Assembly (NCBI RefSeq): GCF_029227855.1
Contig: NZ_CP074356.1
DNA length: 64,000 nt
Origin: Escherichia coli
Lineage (GTDB): Bacteria; Pseudomonadota; Gammaproteobacteria; Enterobacterales; Enterobacteriaceae
Direction: 5' to 3' (one strand)
Position numbers and translations under genes: made by a program. The notes under the pieces are model-generated. The model did not search any database. It was not told the origin of the DNA and worked only from the letters and a program-made list of their open reading frames with translations. Shown here in pieces: positions 13,017 through 19,017 of this stretch (position 1 is its first letter; the number at the start of each line of letters is the position of its first letter).

Positions 13017-13175
13017 TGGAGGAATTATGAAACACTATCGGGAATCGTCTGAATGGCGGGCACATTTGCGAGCACGCATCCAGTAATAACACATGAAACT
13101 ATTTTATCTACGCGTTAGCGATAGACTACGTGCATGGCGAAAGGAGGTAAGCCGATGATTTCAGCGGGACGCTGA

Positions 13176-13320
13176 AACGGGAAAGCCCCTCCCGAGGAAG
13201 GGGCCATAAATAAATAAGGAAAGGGTCATGATGAAGCTACTCATCATCGTGGTGCTCTTAGTCATTAGCTGGCCAGCTTACTAAGACTACCAGGGCGGGG
13301 GAAACCCCGCTCTACCCTCA
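13176..13320 (-). ncRNA. Sib-type antisense sRNA, copy 1 (antitoxin of ibs)
   Basis: Minus-strand promoter TTGACA (13355..13350), 17-bp spacer, TACTTT (13332..13327); transcript fully overlaps ibs copy 1; GC-rich hairpin (13186..13205) followed by a U-rich stretch on the minus strand. Ends are approximate. Confidence 0.5.
13228..13284 (+). CDS. Type I toxin Ibs, 18 aa hydrophobic peptide (MMKLLIIVVLLVISWPAY)
   Basis: ATGATG start followed by a hydrophobic 18-codon ORF, typical of Ibs toxins, preceded by AAGGAAAGGG. Confidence 0.75.
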   Translation: MMKLLIIVVLLVISWPAY

Positions 13321-13506
13321 CTCCTGAAAGTATGCCTTCACGATAAGATTGTCAATCTGCAGGCTTTGCAGTCTGCGATCCTGCCAGCAAATATTCTTTG
13401 CGAGACGTTACGCAATAATCACACTGGAAACTATTTTATCCGCAAGTCAGCGATAGACTGCATACAGGGCGAAAGGAGGTAAGCCGACGATTTCAGCGGG
13501 ACGCTG

Positions 13507-13648
13507 AAACGGGAAAGCCCCTCCCGAGGAAGGGGCCTTAAATAAGGAAAGGGTCATGATGAAGATACTCATCATCGTGGTGCTCTTAGTGATTAGCTAC
13601 CCAGCATACTAAGACTACCAGGGCGGGGGAAACCCCGCTCTACCCTCA
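13507..13648 (-). ncRNA. Sib-type antisense sRNA, copy 2
   Basis: Same architecture as copy 1: minus-strand TTGACA (13683..13678), 17-bp spacer, TAATTT (13660..13655); hairpin plus U-rich 3' end near 13507. Ends are approximate. Confidence 0.5.
13556..13612 (+). CDS. Type I toxin Ibs, 18 aa (MMKILIIVVLLVISYPAY)
   Basis: Paralogue of copy 1 at the same position in repeat unit 2. Confidence 0.75.
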   Translation: MMKILIIVVLLVISYPAY

Positions 13649-13835
13649 CTCCTGAAATTATGCCTTCACGATAAGATTGTCAATCTGCAGGCTTTGCAGT
13701 CTGCGATCCTGCCAGCAAATATTCTTTGCGAGTCGTTACGCAATAATCACAGAGGAAACTATTTTGTTCACGCGTTAGCGATAGACTGCATTCAGGGCGA
13801 AAGGAGGTAAGCCGACGATTTCAGCGGGACGCTGA

Positions 13836-13983
13836 AACGGGAAACCCTCTCCCGGAGAAGAGGGCTTTTAATAAGGAAAGGGTTATGATGAAGCACGTCA
13901 TCATACTGGTGATACTCTTAGTGATTAGCTTCCAGGCTTACTAAGAACACCAGGGGGAGGTGGAAACCTCTCCCTAACCCTCA
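13836..13983 (-). ncRNA. Sib-type antisense sRNA, copy 3
   Basis: Minus-strand TTGACA (14018..14013), 17-bp spacer, TAATTT (13995..13990); diverged hairpin CCCTCTCCCGGAGAAGAGGG. Ends are approximate. Confidence 0.45.
13885..13944 (+). CDS. ibsA: Type I toxin Ibs, 19 aa (MMKHVIILVILLVISFQAY), IbsA-like
   Basis: The 19-aa peptide matches the remembered IbsA sequence; it is the most diverged of the three copies. Confidence 0.7.
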   Translation: MMKHVIILVILLVISFQAY

Positions 13984-14164
13984 CTCCTGAAATTATGTCA
14001 CTCCGCCCTTAGTGTCAATCGACGGCTCTCCGTTCTTGCGAGGCGAATAGCAAAATTTTCTGCGCCGCCGGGCCTAATTCTGAAAGTTTCTTCGTTTGCT
14101 CTTATTTCATTATTGCAGTCGGTATGATACCGGACCTCAATAATTCTCTAAGAAAGGATTTCTT

Positions 14165-14824
14165 ATGAGCGAACAAATCACGTTTGCCACCAGCGATTTT
14201 GCCAGTAACCCGGAACCACGTTGCCCCTGCATTTTGCTGTTGGATGTTTCTGGTTCGATGAGTGGTAGACCTATTAATGAACTTAACGCCGGATTGGTTA
14301 CCTTTCGCGATGAGCTGCTTGCCGATTCGCTGGCCTTAAAAAGAGTGGAACTCGGTATTGTGACGTTCGGCCCGGTGCATGTGGAACAACCCTTTACCAG
14401 CGCCGCTAATTTTTTCCCGCCCATCCTGTTTGCCCAAGGCGATACACCAATGGGGGCCGCCATTACCAAAGCCCTGGATATGGTTGAGGAGCGCAAACGT
14501 GAGTATCGCGCCAATGGTATTTCCTATTATCGTCCGTGGATTTTCCTGATCACTGATGGCGCACCAACCGATGAGTGGCAGGCTGCCGCCAACAAAGTGT
14601 TTCAGGGGGAAGAAGATAAGAAGTTTGCCTTCTTTTCCATCGGTGTTCAGGGGGCGGATATGAAGACTTTGGCACAAATCAGCGTTCGTCAGCCTTTGCC
14701 ACTGCAGGGATTACAATTCCGTGAACTGTTTAGCTGGTTATCCAGTTCGCTGCGTTCGGTTTCCCGCTCCACGCCGGGAACGGAAGTTGTGCTGGAAGCG
14801 CCAAAAGGCTGGACGTCAGTGTGA
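14165..14824 (+). CDS. yegL: von Willebrand factor A (vWA, TerY-like) domain protein YegL
   Basis: 219 aa; MIDAS motif DVSGSMSG in [15 protein letters not shown]; first gene of the yegL-yegK-yegI operon. Confidence 0.9.
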
Positions 14825-15582
14825 GCTGGCGTCTGGTCTATGCATCAACCGTTGGAACGTCGCACATCAGCGCGGACTTGCCTTGCCAGGATGCCTGCCA
14901 GATGCAGGTTGCCTGGTTAAATGACCAGCAGCCATTATTGTCGGTATTTGTCGCTGATGGCGCAGGCAGTGTCTCGCAGGGTGGCGAAGGCGCGATGCTC
15001 GCCGTCAATGAAGCGATGGCTTATATGTCGCAAAAAGTGCAGGGCGGGGAATTGGGGCTTAATGATGTCCTCGCCACGGATATTGTGCTGACCATTCGTC
15101 AACGACTTTTTGCCGAGGCGGAAGCCAAAGAATTAGCGGTTCGCGATTTTGCCTGCACATTTCTGGGACTGATTTCATCGCCTGACGGCACCTTGATTAT
15201 GCAGATTGGCGATGGCGGCGTGGTGGTAGATTTGGGTCACGGTCTGCAATTGCCTCTCACGCCGATGGTGGGTGAATATGCCAACATGACGCACTTCATT
15301 ACCGACGAAGATGCCGTTTCCAGACTGGAAACTTTCACCAGCACTGGGCGTGCGCATAAAGTTGCAGCATTTACGGATGGTATTCAGCGACTGGCGTTAA
15401 ATATGCTGGATAATTCTCCGCATGTGCCTTTCTTTACCCCGTTTTTCAATGGACTGGCGTCAGCAACGCAGGAACAACTCGATTTATTACCTGAATTGTT
15501 AAAGCAGTTTTTGTCCAGCCCGGCGGTAAACGAGCGTACCGATGATGATAAAACGTTGGCACTGGCGCTGTGGTTACCATGA
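14821..15582 (+). CDS. yegK: PP2C-family Ser/Thr protein phosphatase YegK (PphC)
   Basis: 253 aa; GTG start overlapping the yegL stop (GTGA); PP2C-like metal-binding signature (FVADGAGS...); matches remembered PphC. Confidence 0.9.
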
Positions 15583-17519
15583 AACCCACTTTATATACTG
15601 CTACTGGTGAGTGCGTTACGCCAGGCCGTGAACTGGGCAAAGGTGGCGAAGGCGCGGTTTATGATATCGAGGAGTTTGTCGATAGCGTCGCTAAGATTTA
15701 TCACACGCCGCCACCCGCCTTAAAACAGGACAAACTTGCCTTTATGGCTGCGACAGCTGACGCGCAGTTGTTGAATTATGTCGCCTGGCCGCAGGCAACG
15801 CTTCACGGTGGACGAGGCGGAAAGGTTATCGGTTTTATGATGCCAAAAGTTTCTGGTAAAGAACCGATTCATATGATCTATAGCCCGGCACATCGTCGCC
15901 AGAGTTACCCTCATTGTGCGTGGGATTTTCTACTCTATGTTGCGCGCAATATTGCTTCATCTTTTGCTACGATTCACGAGCACGGGCACGTCGTGGGTGA
16001 CGTAAACCAGAATAGCTTTATGGTAGGTCGCGACAGCAAAGTGGTGTTGATTGATAGCGACTCCTTTCAGATTAACGCTAATGGCACGTTGCATTTATGC
16101 GAAGTTGGCGTGTCGCATTTTACGCCGCCAGAGCTACAAACCTTGTCGTCATTTGTCGGCTTTGAACGCACAGAAAATCACGATAATTTTGGCCTAGCGT
16201 TGCTGATTTTTCACGTCTTGTTTGGTGGGCGGCATCCTTATTCTGGTGTGCCGCTTATCTCTGATGCGGGGAATGCACTGGAGACGGATATTGCCCATTT
16301 CCGTTATGCCTACGCGTCAGATAATCAGCGACGTGGTTTAAAACCGCCGCCACGATCTATTCCGCTGTCGATGTTACCGGGCGATGTTGAAGCCATGTTT
16401 CAGCAGGCATTCACGGAAAGTGGCGTGGCAACCGGGCGTCCGACGGCAAAAGCGTGGGTAGCGGCACTTGATTCTCTACGCCAACAGTTAAAGAAATGTA
16501 CCGTTTCGGCAATGCATGTTTACCCCGGTCATTTGACTGACTGCCCGTGGTGTGCGCTGGATAATCAAGGCGTTATCTATTTTATTGATCTCGGCGAAGA
16601 GGTCATTACCACCGGCGGTGATTTTGTGCTGGCGAAAGTCTGGGCGATGGTGATGGCGTCAGTAGCACCGCCAGCATTGCAACTGCCATTACCCGATCAT
16701 TTTCAACCGACCGGCAGGCCGCTTCCTTTAGGCCTGTTACGGCGTGAATACATCATTCTGATTGAGATCGCACTGTCAGCGTTATCGCTGTTGCTTTGCG
16801 GCCTTCAGACAGAACCGCGTTATATTATTTTGGTTCCTGTGCTGGCGGCTATCTGGATTATTGGCAGCCTGACAAGCAAAGCGTACCAAGCAGAAATCCA
16901 GCAACGCCGTGAGGCGTTTAATCGTGCGAAAATGGACTATGACCATTTAGTCAGCCAGACCCAACGGTTGGGCGGGCTGGAAGGTTTTATAGCCAAACGG
17001 ACGATGCTCGAAAAAATGAAGGACGAAATTCTTGGGTTACCGGAAGAAGAAAAGCGCGATCTGGCAGCACTTCAGGACACCGCAAGGGAACGGCAGAAGC
17101 AGAAGTTTCTGGAGGGATTTTTTATTGATGTTGCCTCTATTCCCGGCGTTGGCCCTGTGCGTAAAGCGGCGTTACGGTCCTTTGGTATTGAAACGGCGGC
17201 AGACGTTACCCGACGGAGCGTTAAGCAAGTGAAAGGTTTTGGTGATCATCTGACCCAGGCGGTTATCGACTGGAAAGCGAGTTGCGAACGCCGTTTTGTT
17301 TTCAGGCCGAACGAAGCGGTAACGCCTGCAGACAGACAAGCGGTAATGGCAAAAATGGCCGCCAAACGACATCGGCTGGAATCGGCGCTGACTGTCGGCG
17401 CGACAGAGTTGCAGCGATTCCGCCTTCATGCTCCAGCACGGACCATGCCGTTGATGGAACCGTTACGTCAGGCGGCAGAAAAACTGGCTCAGGCGCAGGC
17501 AGATTTAAGCCGCTGCTGA
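15579..17519 (+). CDS. yegI: Hanks-type (eukaryotic-like) Ser/Thr protein kinase YegI
   Basis: ATG at 15579 overlaps the yegK stop (ATGA); glycine-rich loop LGKGGEGAVYD, catalytic-loop-like HVVGDVNQNS and DFG-like IDSDSF; C-terminal predicted TM segment and coiled-coil region. An alternative GTG start at 15570 is possible. Confidence 0.9.
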   Translation: MKPTLYTATGECVTPGRELGKGGEGAVYDIEEFVDSVAKIYHTPPPALKQDKLAFMAATADAQLLNYVAWPQATLHGGRGGKVIGFMMPKVSGKEPIHMIYSPAHRRQSYPHCAWDFLLYVARNIASSFATIHEHGHVVGDVNQNSFMVGRDSKVVLIDSDSFQINANGTLHLCEVGVSHFTPPELQTLSSFVGFERTENHDNFGLALLIFHVLFGGRHPYSGVPLISDAGNALETDIAHFRYAYASDNQRRGLKPPPRSIPLSMLPGDVEAMFQQAFTESGVATGRPTAKAWVAALDSLRQQLKKCTVSAMHVYPGHLTDCPWCALDNQGVIYFIDLGEEVITTGGDFVLAKVWAMVMASVAPPALQLPLPDHFQPTGRPLPLGLLRREYIILIEIALSALSLLLCGLQTEPRYIILVPVLAAIWIIGSLTSKAYQAEIQQRREAFNRAKMDYDHLVSQTQRLGGLEGFIAKRTMLEKMKDEILGLPEEEKRDLAALQDTARERQKQKFLEGFFIDVASIPGVGPVRKAALRSFGIETAADVTRRSVKQVKGFGDHLTQAVIDWKASCERRFVFRPNEAVTPADRQAVMAKMAAKRHRLESALTVGATELQRFRLHAPARTMPLMEPLRQAAEKLAQAQADLSRC

Positions 17520-17531
17520 GCCATTTTTCAA

Positions 17532-18884
17532 TTAACGAAACACCACTTCCGCCCAGCGTGCCAGCCCGGCGGTGACGGAGCCAAAGTCATCGCCGCCTGC
17601 AATCGGAATGCCCGGCAACTGTTCTGCCAGCGCTTTTTTAATCAGCGGCGAACGGGCGCTACCGCCGGTCAGGTAGATGACATCCGGTTTTTCCTGGGCG
17701 TTATCCAGCGCCAGTTGCACCTGTTCCAGAATCCGCATCAGTGGCTGGTTGAGGGCGCTTTCCAGCCCTTGCTGGCTAATCAGCGTAGCCAGTTCATCGC
17801 TGATAAACGGCAGTGAGGCGCGGGTTTCCGCTACGCTTGAAAGCGCAATTTTGCTCTCTTCTGCGCTACGTACCAGGCGATAGCTTAAACGCTGACGCCA
17901 GACTTTCTGTAACAGGGCCACTTTTTCCGGTTCGCGGGCATCGCGTACCAGATCGTTAAGCAGACGACCGTTGGCACTACTGTAGAAATCACTTTGCGCA
18001 GGTACGTCGTTGATGGCAACCGCATTCCACCACGGCAGAATCGGCAGGGCGATGCCTTTTTCGGTTTCGCCACCCATGCCCAGTAACGGCATCAGGTTTT
18101 TAAACGCCAGTGCGATATCCAGATCGTTACCGCCAATACGGCAACCACTGTGACCCAGCAGGCTGGCTTCACGATCGAGACGCGAACGCCACTGCGGCCC
18201 CATCAGCAGCAATGAACAGTCAGTCGTACCACCGCCGATATCCACCACCAGCACCCGTTTTTCTTCCTGCAAGGTGGCTTCGTAATCCAGCCCAGCCGCG
18301 ACCGGCTCGTACTGGAATACCACATCCTTAAACCCGGCACGCTTCGCCGCGCGTTCCAGAATCCCCTGCGCCTGGGTGTTTGCTTCATCGCCGCCCAGCC
18401 CCTGGAAGTTGATAGGGCGACCAATCACCGCCTGAGTAATCGCTTCTGGCAGCTGTGCCTGCGCCTGCTGGCGAATGTGCAACATCATTGCGCAGACCAG
18501 ATCCTCAAACAGCGCTACCTGCTGCGGTTTTAAGCCGCTGGCACCGAGGAACGATTTTGGTGATTTCACAAACCACACTTCTTCTGGATCATCAATGTAC
18601 TGTGCCAGTGAGGAAAGACCGAACTGCACGCTTTTCGCCGTAACATCGATATCTTCTTCGCGGTTATAACGAATCGCCCGACGCAACAGCGCCTGCGTTT
18701 CATCGTCGTCTGCCGGAACATCATGATGGCGGTACAGCCATTCGCTTACCGCTTCACGCGTTGGCGCGCAAAGCATTGAAGGCAGCAGCGTGCTGTCGTT
18801 TTCCATTTTCAGTAATTGCGGCTTACCGTCGCGCATGACCGCCACTGAACAGTTTGCTGTACCGTAATCAAAACCAATAAACAC
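17532..18884 (-). CDS. yegD: Hsp70/actin-like ATPase family protein YegD
   Basis: 450 aa from GTG at 18884 with GGGGA Shine-Dalgarno upstream; phosphate-1 motif FIGFDYGTANCSVAV and DIGGGTTDCSLL (Hsp70 fold); convergent with yegI. Confidence 0.85.
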   Translation of the reverse strand: MFIGFDYGTANCSVAVMRDGKPQLLKMENDSTLLPSMLCAPTREAVSEWLYRHHDVPADDDETQALLRRAIRYNREEDIDVTAKSVQFGLSSLAQYIDDPEEVWFVKSPKSFLGASGLKPQQVALFEDLVCAMMLHIRQQAQAQLPEAITQAVIGRPINFQGLGGDEANTQAQGILERAAKRAGFKDVVFQYEPVAAGLDYEATLQEEKRVLVVDIGGGTTDCSLLLMGPQWRSRLDREASLLGHSGCRIGGNDLDIALAFKNLMPLLGMGGETEKGIALPILPWWNAVAINDVPAQSDFYSSANGRLLNDLVRDAREPEKVALLQKVWRQRLSYRLVRSAEESKIALSSVAETRASLPFISDELATLISQQGLESALNQPLMRILEQVQLALDNAQEKPDVIYLTGGSARSPLIKKALAEQLPGIPIAGGDDFGSVTAGLARWAEVVFR

Positions 18885-19017
18885 GAAATAATCCCCATGC
18901 CGGTGAAGAAGGGGCGTGACTTTAGCGAAATGTTGCCGTCGCGACAACCGGAATATGAAAGCAAAGCGTAGCGTCTGAATAACGTTTATGCTGAAAGCGG
19001 ATTAACAAGGAGATGCG

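Follow-up and report, generated by a model that had tools for sequence, protein, structure and literature searches.

The yegL-pphC-yegI operon of Escherichia coli: a three-gene phosphorylation switch of the TerY-P type

The yegL, pphC (yegK) and yegI genes of E. coli form an already described operon that encodes a three-gene kinase/phosphatase/vWA switch of the TerY-P type. In the explanation that we consider best, with a probability of roughly 0.55, the locus would be a self-contained, horizontally acquired phosphorylation switch of this class that is triggered by DNA and likely acts in conflict with phages or mobile DNA. Novelty is low, given that the locus, both enzymes and the triad class have already been published; the biochemistry of PphC and YegI is found in bioRxiv 10.1101/303594 and 10.1101/819920, for which PMC13232886 cites later versions in J Bacteriol 2018 and FEBS Lett 2020. 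What the present analysis adds are the boundaries of the cassette, the exclusion of yegD, and context evidence pointing toward conflict with mobile DNA. An earlier note on this DNA had called the physiological role of the E. coli copy essentially unknown, in agreement with bioRxiv 10.1101/819920 and PMC7535926.

Results

The window is the whole stretch of E. coli DNA that was analysed, 64,000 nucleotides in length. The reading frames of yegL, yegK and yegI were found where the earlier note had placed them, and the cassette comprises the following features:

14002..17531, + strand: Escherichia-specific inserted segment with the whole cassette inside, bounded by the end of the third Sib/Ibs copy and by the stop codon of yegD
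14002..14164, + strand: non-coding leader 5´ of yegL, presumed promoter region
14165..14824, + strand: yegL, cytoplasmic TerY-type vWA protein, 219 aa
14821..15582, + strand: yegK (pphC), minimal PP2C Ser/Thr phosphatase, 253 aa, GTG start
15579..17519, + strand: yegI, membrane-anchored atypical Hanks Ser/Thr kinase, 646 aa, ATG start
15579..16484, + strand: YegI kinase domain, aa 1-302, from the secondary structure of the model, Foldseek, and hhalign to the ter-plasmid kinase
16488..16568, + strand: YegI zinc-ribbon-like motif, aa 304-330, C307-x5-H313-x8-C322-P-W-C325
16734..16898, + strand: YegI transmembrane hairpin, about aa 386-440, from model helices (389-409 and 415-465), hydrophobic sequence and published topology
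17112..17291, + strand: YegI cytoplasmic (HhH)2 domain, about aa 512-571, between coiled-coil helices

The three-gene operon with overlapping junctions at 14821 and 15579, as previously proposed, can be read directly from the sequence. The yegL/yegK junction is GTGA (yegL TGA at 14822-14824, yegK GTG at 14821-14823), and the yegK/yegI junction is ATGA (yegK TGA at 15580-15582, yegI ATG at 15579-15581), with an in-frame GTG at 15570 as an alternative yegI start. Of 83 related loci, 76 offer a start codon that would make the vWA and PP2C genes overlap by the same 4 nt, and in nearly all of these loci the PP2C and kinase genes meet within -17 to +9 nt; the overlaps are not due to chance. The "stoichiometric co-expression" that the earlier note drew from these overlapping codons is nevertheless overstated, since the step from overlap to co-expression is interpretive and published expression is almost nil. 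A sigma-70 consensus scan of the leader gave no promoter upstream of yegL, and a promoter and terminator scan gave no signal exceeding shuffle expectation.

The stop codon of yegI occupies 17517-17519 and that of yegD, on the reverse strand, 17532-17534, leaving 12 nt between them (17520-17531); the tail-to-tail arrangement with yegD noted before thus stands, but the gap is not the 13 bp then given. As annotated, yegD encodes 450 aa from a GTG start and ends at 18884, while its longest reading frame continues to a TTG at 18947; the protein matches Pfam HSP70 (4.6e-15) and NCBIfam PRK11678 (810 bits). The neighbours of the cassette in the window are sib/ibs, mdtABC, yegD and alkA, with no defence genes among them, and the cassette itself encodes no nuclease or toxin.

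A search for the three domains that had been named gave the vWA and PP2C domains and no Pkinase match, YegI being a kinase all the same. YegL matches Pfam VWA (2e-9) and VWA_2 (4e-7) and carries an 11-residue MIDAS string at residues 24-34; its MIDAS is complete, with D27, S29, S31, T94 and D131 all conserved in 68 homologues. Across the same homologues 81 of the 219 residues are at least 95% conserved, and the protein has a conserved disordered motif at its N-terminus and a conserved, serine-rich C-terminal tail. YegL is by far the most constrained component of the cassette. COG4245 is presumably the family named for YegL as 'vWA domain of TerY type', and COG4248 the one that covers YegI. YegK matches Pfam PP2C_2 (2e-52), and its metal-binding aspartates (D24, D46, D131, D186, D242 and D243) are conserved; published work shows PphC to be a Mn-dependent phosphatase that dephosphorylates YegI (10.1101/303594).

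YegI has no match to Pkinase (PF00069), its sole Pfam match being a marginal one to HHH_5 (0.0021, aa 515-551), whereas one distant member of the family (P0192) does match PF00069. The canonical Hanks motifs are absent from YegI, VGD replacing HRD and DSD replacing DFG (10.1101/819920). Yet K39, D141, N143, D159, D161 and S162 are invariant in 30 diverse homologues, and the AlphaFold2 model (pLDDT 90.5) has the PknB kinase domain as its best PDB match in Foldseek (TM-score 0.71 on target); the top matches, PknB, Aurora B and BRAF, score 0.65-0.74 on target. YegI thus combines the bilobal fold, catalytic Lys, catalytic Asp and metal-binding Asp of Hanks kinases with the lack of Pfam Pkinase recognition and of canonical HRD and DFG. 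We consider the negative Pfam result superseded by the conserved residues, the fold and the literature, in which YegI is an active, Mn2+-preferring, atypical Hanks kinase with mutational proof (10.1101/819920). It autophosphorylates activation-loop serines with second-order kinetics, and these phosphates are removed by PphC (10.1101/303594, 10.1101/819920). On the combined evidence of conserved catalytic residues, the model with its PknB match, and published biochemistry, YegI is an atypical Hanks kinase.

YegI is an inner-membrane protein with a two-pass hairpin, and PhoA-LacZ topology places both termini in the cytoplasm (10.1101/819920). The zinc-motif ligands C307, H313, C322 and C325 are invariant in the 30 diverse homologues. 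In the (HhH)2 domain, G525, S534-G536-I-E-T-A540 and G553-F-G555 are nearly invariant with pLDDT >90, and the HhH region also matches the NCBIfam DNA polymerase IV HhH region (0.002). DNA binding by this region is a prediction from sequence (Pfam E 0.0021).

The TerY-P architecture that had been recognized in the cassette is borne out by three pairwise or profile homologies to the ter-plasmid triad together with an identical gene order. YegL is 27% identical to the TerY vWA domain over 188 aa (E 8e-19, pairwise), and tblastn with YegL reaches TerY and 'TerY-C' proteins encoded on ter plasmids (28% identity, E about 1e-10); YegK is 28% identical to the ter-plasmid PP2C over 151 aa (E 4e-6). The YegI family profile aligns with the ter-plasmid kinase at an hhalign probability of 98.9% (E 1.6e-17), the zinc motif included, which falls on the C...C-P-x-C motif of that kinase; Pfam TerY_C gave no match on YegI. 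These similarities mark YegL, YegK and YegI as distant homologues, in the same order, of the ter-plasmid triad. To the extent that PMC11090510 and PMC4978471 relay the definition of the broad class of Anantharaman, Iyer and Aravind 2012, four of its elements are found here: a TerY-type vWA protein with an intact MIDAS, an adjacent PP2C phosphatase, a Ser/Thr kinase with a C-terminal zinc ribbon, and a conserved three-gene neighbourhood.

PADLOC made no TerY-P call on the locus. Among its TerY-P HMMs, YegL reached E 0.012 (13 bits) against TerY, while YegK matched none and YegI none of the TerY-P models, showing generic kinase matches alone (MkoA and PD-T4-6, about 1e-4). The canonical ter-plasmid triad, used as a control, likewise went unrecognized; the models are narrow, and the negative result therefore says little about class membership.

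In 75 of 79 related loci the three genes lie side by side in one and the same order, which is also that of the ter plasmid, and the triad is co-inherited as a unit, as had been anticipated. Its distribution across bacteria is patchy, taking in Proteobacteria, Actinobacteria, Firmicutes, Planctomycetota, Acidobacteria and Synergistota, with Methanoregula as the sole archaeal genus. No fourth gene or effector shared between clades was present among the related loci examined. Three sets of neighbours were considered as core parts and rejected as clade-limited. Competibacteraceae have a TetR-like gene beside the triad, Paraburkholderia a gene for a secreted Cys-rich protein, and some Burkholderiales a 69-aa basic ORF together with a secreted SNase.

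Salmonella and Citrobacter have the order dgcE-alkA-yegD-ibs-mdtABC without the triad, and in blastn of their yegD-ibs-mdtA intergenic regions against the window homology ends at 14001 and restarts at 17532. Since these genera keep yegD-ibs-mdtA without the triad, positions 14002-17531 represent an insertion specific to Escherichia. The nearest YegI outside Escherichia is 62% identical, compared with 88-90% for YegD in Salmonella and Citrobacter, and the cassette proteins of E. coli and Burkholderiales share 60% identity, which, with the extremely patchy distribution, indicates a mobile cassette rather than conserved physiology. These comparisons indicate horizontal acquisition of the cassette, which entered the Escherichia lineage at a site flanked by yegD and the sib/ibs toxin-antitoxin repeats.

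Within E. coli the cassette is core, with full-length genes in about 5,413 of 5,426 complete genomes. dN/dS values in Escherichia are 0.02-0.07 for yegL, 0.12-0.16 for yegK and 0.08-0.14 for yegI, which indicates that the cassette is under purifying selection and still functional in Escherichia. Two cryptic-clade Escherichia genomes have a disrupted yegI, one through a nonsense mutation and the other through a frameshift.

In the clade closest to E. coli, the triad often lies beside known defence systems, a tendency seen with no background control. The neighbours are an SLFN-like helicase, BrxR and JetB at one locus (L001), AbiH, a KAP NTPase and Tn7-like genes at another (L002), GmrSD and type I RM at a third (L003), and type I RM with Mrr at a fourth (L008). 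Other related loci have Avs2, JetC and type I RM beside the triad, Gabija GajA/GajB immediately upstream of it together with type I RM, or JetC. Linkage to ter or to DNA-processing and restriction modules, a further element of the broad TerY-P class, is absent from the window and present in many but not all close relatives, again with no control. Housekeeping contexts also occur, with heme and PS-decarboxylase genes (L006) or PBP2, RodA and RNase E/G (L093). For the more distant clades, in which YegI shares 44% identity or less with the E. coli protein, ten contexts were considered by their two largest flanking ORFs each (L040, L041, L043, L048, L050, L053, L055, L061, L082 and L083), and one, L040, gave a strong match to known defence.

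Discussion

Behind the YegI kinase follow a zinc ribbon, a coiled coil and a predicted (HhH)2 domain that would bind DNA without sequence specificity, and this arrangement suggests that the switch may respond to DNA, or to an event involving DNA, on the cytoplasmic side of the membrane. Such a signal would cluster YegI and lead to trans-autophosphorylation, PphC would hold the system off or reset it, and YegL could be a MIDAS-metal-dependent adaptor or a substrate. A link to DNA is also seen in published work, where overproduced YegL and YegI are 'DNA-damage-up' proteins (10.1101/354589). Since the cassette encodes no nuclease or toxin, it probably acts by phosphorylating proteins of the host or of the invader. 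In a linker-fused AlphaFold model of YegL, YegK and YegI(1-345), built with 12 paired rows, the domains were folded and undocked and the pTM was 0.42, so that no confident complex is predicted.

By analogy with close relatives that travel as the same cassette within defence islands, the operon appears most likely to take part in conflicts with phages or other mobile DNA. Core status in E. coli and non-defence neighbours are unusual for a defence system, and count against such a role. The barely detectable transcription, the missing PADLOC call, the housekeeping settings of several relatives, the disrupted yegI genes of cryptic-clade Escherichia and the yegJ insertion of K-12 also weigh against the explanation that we consider best. 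The link to anti-phage defence drawn in the earlier note holds for the three-gene make-up and was otherwise overstated, the validated kinase having an OB fold and the PADLOC profiles finding no match. We found no published phage-protection test of yegLKI in the literature. More narrowly, YegLKI might be a domesticated, core-genome immune sensor in which the cytoplasmic (HhH)2 arm of the inner-membrane kinase detects foreign DNA as it enters by phage injection or conjugation, followed by clustering and a signal through YegL. We regard this version as unlikely; if true, it would define a TerY-P branch separate from the OB-fold and CoCoNuT-linked versions.

The core status of the cassette would also fit an endogenous stress or metal switch without a defence role, in which YegL, through its MIDAS, would respond to a divalent metal or to a cue from the envelope or from stationary phase, and YegI and PphC would set the phosphorylation state of host metabolic or envelope proteins. 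Metal sensing was the function originally proposed for TerY-P (Anantharaman 2012, as relayed by PMC11090510), some relatives sit among housekeeping genes (L093, L006), yegI is weakly expressed in stationary phase in REL606 (10.1101/819920), and many Ser/Thr phosphosites of E. coli are orphans, with few kinases known (PMC8463566). Yet such a switch would not be expected to be so patchily distributed and 60% identical to Burkholderiales proteins, to be absent from the same locus in Salmonella and Citrobacter, or to recur beside Avs2, Gabija, Wadjet, RM and Tn7-like elements, and a predicted DNA-binding HhH module is unexpected in a metal or envelope sensor. We think this reading possible, if on the unlikely side. 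Another reading, in which the acquired cassette is a silenced remnant that has no function and simply persists in E. coli, is improbable. The barely detectable transcription of yegLKI, almost nil in the conditions tested (10.1101/303594, PMC13232886), the recurrent yegI mutations in long-term evolution lines (10.1101/303594), and the toxic or DNA-damaging effects of overexpression (PMC6116040; 10.1101/354589) would all be consistent with a remnant. So would the two truncated yegI genes of cryptic-clade Escherichia and, in K-12 strains, the insertion of yegJ between pphC and yegI. All three genes have dN/dS values far below 1, with yegL as low as neighbouring housekeeping genes, which leads us to down-weight a decaying pseudogene, and full-length genes in >99% of the 5,426 complete genomes also speak against it.

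It is hardly credible that yegD, which encodes an Hsp70/actin-fold ATPase, supplies a fourth partner to the triad. The two genes are convergent with stop codons 12 nt apart, PMC12288877 counts yegD and yegI among the pairs with convergent overlapping transcripts, and yegD is induced by yegJ overexpression in K-12 (PMC13232886). But a YegD homologue adjoins the triad in only 4 loci of about 85 examined, all from Escherichia, and in none of the >70 others; co-variation, raised earlier as a possible sign of partnership, therefore fails across genomes. Salmonella and Citrobacter keep yegD at 88-90% identity without the triad, and the 12-nt gap is merely the edge of the insertion (blastn boundary 17532). 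These comparisons place yegD outside the cassette, as an unrelated, vertically inherited neighbour.

The yegL-pphC-yegI operon holds the only PP2C/Hanks-kinase pair of E. coli. A role as a defence or DNA-sensing switch, if true, would assign a function to genes that nearly all E. coli genomes carry, and the operon would then also serve as a tractable model of the many TerY-P modules that are attached to restriction systems.

Among known systems, the triad of the ter plasmids (Salmonella IncHI plasmid NZ_CP039717, locus L091) has the same order of vWA, PP2C and Ser/Thr kinase genes, all homologous, and its kinase has the same Cys/His zinc motif after the catalytic domain. It differs in each protein: its vWA protein has an extra TerY-C metal-binding domain (346 aa, against 219 for YegL), its PP2C has a long N-terminal extension (577 aa, against 253 for YegK), and its kinase, at 499 aa, is without the transmembrane hairpin, coiled coil and (HhH)2 of YegI. 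It also lies inside a ter operon with TerD/TerX/TerW and nucleoside-biosynthesis genes, whereas the E. coli cassette stands alone.

The anti-phage TerY-P of Gao et al. 2020 (PADLOC 'TerY-P'), described in PMC7699616 as active against T7-like phages, likewise consists of three genes for a vWA protein, a PP2C phosphatase and a Ser/Thr kinase. According to the account in PMC11090510, that kinase has a C-terminal OB fold, in contrast to YegI, which ends in the transmembrane hairpin, coiled coil and (HhH)2; the E. coli cassette also lacks matches to the PADLOC TerY-P profiles. TerY-P modules of large restriction operons (PMC11090510) share with YegLKI a TerY-like vWA protein, a PP2C and a kinase with a C-terminal zinc ribbon. 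The E. coli cassette differs from these modules in being without adjacent McrBC, HEPN or helicase genes, and YegI differs from their kinases in its additional membrane and HhH extension.

In the H1 type VI secretion system of Pseudomonas, PpkA and PppA form a threonine-phosphorylation pathway in which the vWA domain of PpkA is periplasmic and fused to the kinase, and the output passes through an FHA protein. The Deinococcus operon DRA0331-0334 (bioRxiv 10.64898/2026.01.23.701218) is a vWA-kinase-FHA-PP2C operon. YegLKI resembles both as a reversible switch whose Hanks kinase, PP2C phosphatase and vWA domain are encoded by a single operon. In contrast to PpkA/PppA, it lacks an FHA protein, and its vWA domain resides in a cytoplasmic protein of its own.

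Gene order and distribution of the cassette

The genes yegL (vWA), yegK (PP2C, now named pphC) and yegI (kinase) have the coordinates and overlapping junctions read earlier from the sequence. The yegL stop codon is overlapped by the yegK start (GTGA), and the yegK stop codon by the yegI start (ATGA), the latter overlap having been recorded previously by Rajagopalan and Dworkin (bioRxiv 10.1101/819920, 10.1101/303594).

Genes from the ORF list, with the conserved ends of YegL
14165-14824, plus strand, yegL
14165-14221, YegL N-terminal motif region (aa 1-19)
14741-14821, YegL serine-rich C-terminal tail (aa 193-219)
14821-15582, plus strand, yegK (pphC), GTG start
15579-17519, plus strand, yegI, ATG start
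17532-18884, strand opposite to the triad, yegD

The expectation that the three genes are co-inherited was borne out. The YegI family comprises 3,236 representatives (50% clustering, E up to 1e-30), mostly of about 645 aa, and 377 relatives were found when a single genome was scanned for each species. The best 80 of these 377 come from Escherichia, one Klebsiella species, many Burkholderiales, Pseudomonas, Chromatium and Competibacteraceae, and further from Frankia, Georgenia, Paenibacillus, Planctomycetota, Acidobacteria, Synergistaceae and the archaeon Methanoregula. The closest YegI outside Escherichia is 62% identical (Klebsiella spallanzanii), followed by Burkholderiales at 60%. Of the 79 loci whose upstream sequence was long enough, 75 have contiguous vWA, PP2C and kinase genes in this order, and the other four have frameshifts or insertions. 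A start codon permitting the 4-nt vWA/PP2C overlap is found in 76/83 loci. No fourth gene common to different clades was found around the triad loci.

Several Burkholderiales relatives have a conserved and highly basic ORF of 69 aa (MKFGMRKPS...GWGWLTNPK...) close upstream of the vWA gene, and the ORF often has a secreted protein resembling staphylococcal nuclease after it (L001:7719-8474, L009:7700-8501, L008:8075-8284, L018:4165-4410, numbered by locus); this ORF is absent from E. coli. A database E. coli YegI-like protein of 602 aa (P0036) has a PP2C_2 Pfam match, which points to a fusion of pphC with yegI, or to read-through of a frameshift, in the strain concerned.

Among 5,426 complete E. 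coli genomes, 5,413 contain yegK and 5,414 contain yegL, in one copy on the chromosome. Values of dN/dS within Escherichia are low (yegL 0.02-0.07, yegK 0.12-0.16, yegI 0.08-0.14; neighbouring yegD 0.03-0.05), and the triad genes are thus maintained by selection. Two cryptic-clade Escherichia have a broken yegI, with a nonsense codon at position 460 or a frameshift near codon 515 (L012:8680-10617, L013:4509-6447); in both, the HhH region is lost and the kinase stays intact. The window, which is from E. coli, comes from a strain lacking yegJ, a gene inserted between pphC and yegI in K-12, and laboratory transcription of the cassette is barely detectable (10.1101/303594; PMC13232886). Overproduction of either YegL or YegI increases DNA damage (10.1101/354589). 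The pphC gene (14821-15582) varies more than is usual in the E. coli core genome: copies from 2,173 genomes have only 90-95% nucleotide identity to the window copy, and the allele of strain E69 (L045:2980-3741) is 80.9% identical, with a dS of 0.79 compared to about 0.26-0.31 for the flanking yegL and yegI, which suggests deep allele classes or recombination.

Proteins of the cassette

Pfam confirmed VWA in YegL (2e-9), which contains the MIDAS string DVSGSMSG, and PP2C_2 in YegK (2e-52), but reported no protein-kinase domain in YegI, only a marginal helix-hairpin-helix match. By the terms of the earlier note, failure to confirm all three domains formally speaks against its reading, yet here the miss is misleading. 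An alignment of 30 diverse homologues shows invariant ATP-binding K39, catalytic D141/N143 and metal-binding D159/D161/S162, the AlphaFold2 model is confident (pLDDT 90.5, pTM 0.71), and among PDB structures it best matches the M. tuberculosis PknB kinase domain. Experiments have demonstrated Ser/Thr kinase activity of YegI, which prefers Mn2+ and has DSD replacing DFG, and have shown it to be a two-pass inner-membrane protein with both termini cytoplasmic. In the same work PphC was active as a PP2C phosphatase and removed phosphate from YegI, reversing its autophosphorylation (Rajagopalan and Dworkin; 10.1101/819920, 10.1101/303594).

Regions of YegI, from the homologue alignment and AlphaFold2 model
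aa 1-302, kinase domain
C307-H313-C322-C325, invariant zinc motif
about aa 386-440, transmembrane hairpin
between the hairpin and (HhH)2, long coiled coil
about aa 512-571, (HhH)2 module
C-terminal to (HhH)2, final long helix

YegL is the most conserved component (at least 95% conservation at 81/219 residues), including its N-terminal motif and serine-rich tail (S193, S195, S200, S202), both near-invariant from bacteria through Methanoregula. AlphaFold models these ends as disordered (pLDDT 27-55 and 41-69, respectively); such a combination of conservation and predicted disorder is what docking or phospho-acceptor peptides typically show. When AlphaFold was given the three proteins as a linker fusion, it produced no confident assembly (pTM 0.42).

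yegD and the edges of the insertion

The Hsp70-like yegD (Pfam HSP70; NCBIfam PRK11678, 810 bits) had been proposed as a partner lying tail-to-tail with the triad. The genes are indeed convergent, with 12 nt rather than 13 between the stop codons; this leaves no room for a terminator (window 17480-17570), so the transcripts must overlap, and the pair is catalogued among convergent overlapping transcripts (PMC12288877). The partnership is refuted: a YegD homologue adjoins the triad in the four Escherichia loci only, and Salmonella and Citrobacter have an 88-90% identical YegD in the order dgcE-alkA-yegD-ibs-mdtABC, with the triad absent. When their intergenic regions are aligned to the window, homology ends at 14001 and restarts at 17532. 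By this comparison 14002-17531 is an insertion specific to Escherichia, whose edge accounts for the 12-nt gap.

The left edge (window 14040-14065) keeps CTTGCGAGGCGAATAGCAAAA. This is similar to the sequence with which the Salmonella junction enters the yegD stop codon, CTTGCGAGGCGCTTAGCGGAAAA (cf. window 17520-17545), and may be a target-site remnant or duplication. In window 13093-14018 three Sib antitoxin RNAs lie in tandem (Rfam SIB_RNA, 140-149 bits), and opposite each is a 19-codon ibs toxin ORF. K-12 has two copies at the matching locus, and Salmonella and Citrobacter have a single Ibs copy at the syntenic position.

Sib antitoxin RNAs
13213-13355, minus strand
13541-13683, minus strand
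13870-14018, minus strand

Possible function and relation to TerY-P

The triad had also been linked to anti-phage defence. Four Pfam-annotated neighbourhoods of relatives contain, respectively, SLFN-like helicase, MazG-like, ScoMcrA/NOV_C, BrxR and JetB genes; AbiH, a KAP NTPase and a Tn7-like transposon; GmrSD, SymE and type I RM; and type I RM with Mrr. Two others are housekeeping. PADLOC, applied to the two largest flanking ORFs at each of 20 further loci, gave strong matches to Avs2, JetC (twice), type I RM (twice) and Gabija GajA/GajB directly upstream, as well as weaker candidates, with no strong match in those ORFs at 12 of the 20. By raw tally at triad loci, clear defence genes occur in 9 of the 17 contexts examined in the clade closest to E. 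coli. The association appears clear in that clade and weak in distant ones. The defence claim, drawn by analogy with a different TerY-P subtype, is a reasonable but unproven extrapolation.

In the mechanism we suggest, YegI is a kinase tethered to the membrane, with an HhH arm in the cytoplasm that would bind DNA. YegI could then be clustered, and the kinase turned on, by DNA or by some event linked to DNA at the membrane. PphC would reset YegI, and YegL might be a metal-dependent adaptor or substrate. Since the cassette encodes no nuclease or toxin, it could act by phosphorylating proteins of the host or the invader. We consider a putative part in conflicts with phages or plasmids the likeliest function, with a probability of about one half. 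All of this concerns a locus, two enzymes and a triad class that have been described before.

The TerY-P assignment itself held at class level and not for the phage-defending subtype, which has a kinase with an OB fold, unlike YegLKI. PADLOC TerY-P models did not match YegLKI; they also miss the canonical triad of tellurite-resistance (ter) plasmids, so this negative excludes the narrow subtype only. In tblastn searches of plasmids, YegL matches the TerY vWA proteins of ter plasmids, one of which has the order TerY (vWA + TerY-C)-PP2C-kinase. YegL aligns with the TerY vWA domain over 188 aa (27% identity, E 8e-19), YegK with the plasmid PP2C (E 4e-6), and the YegI family profile with the plasmid kinase over 326 columns, zinc motif included (98.9% probability). 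By the homology of all three proteins, E. coli yegLKI is thus a distant member of TerY-P, as that class is defined second-hand in PMC11090510.
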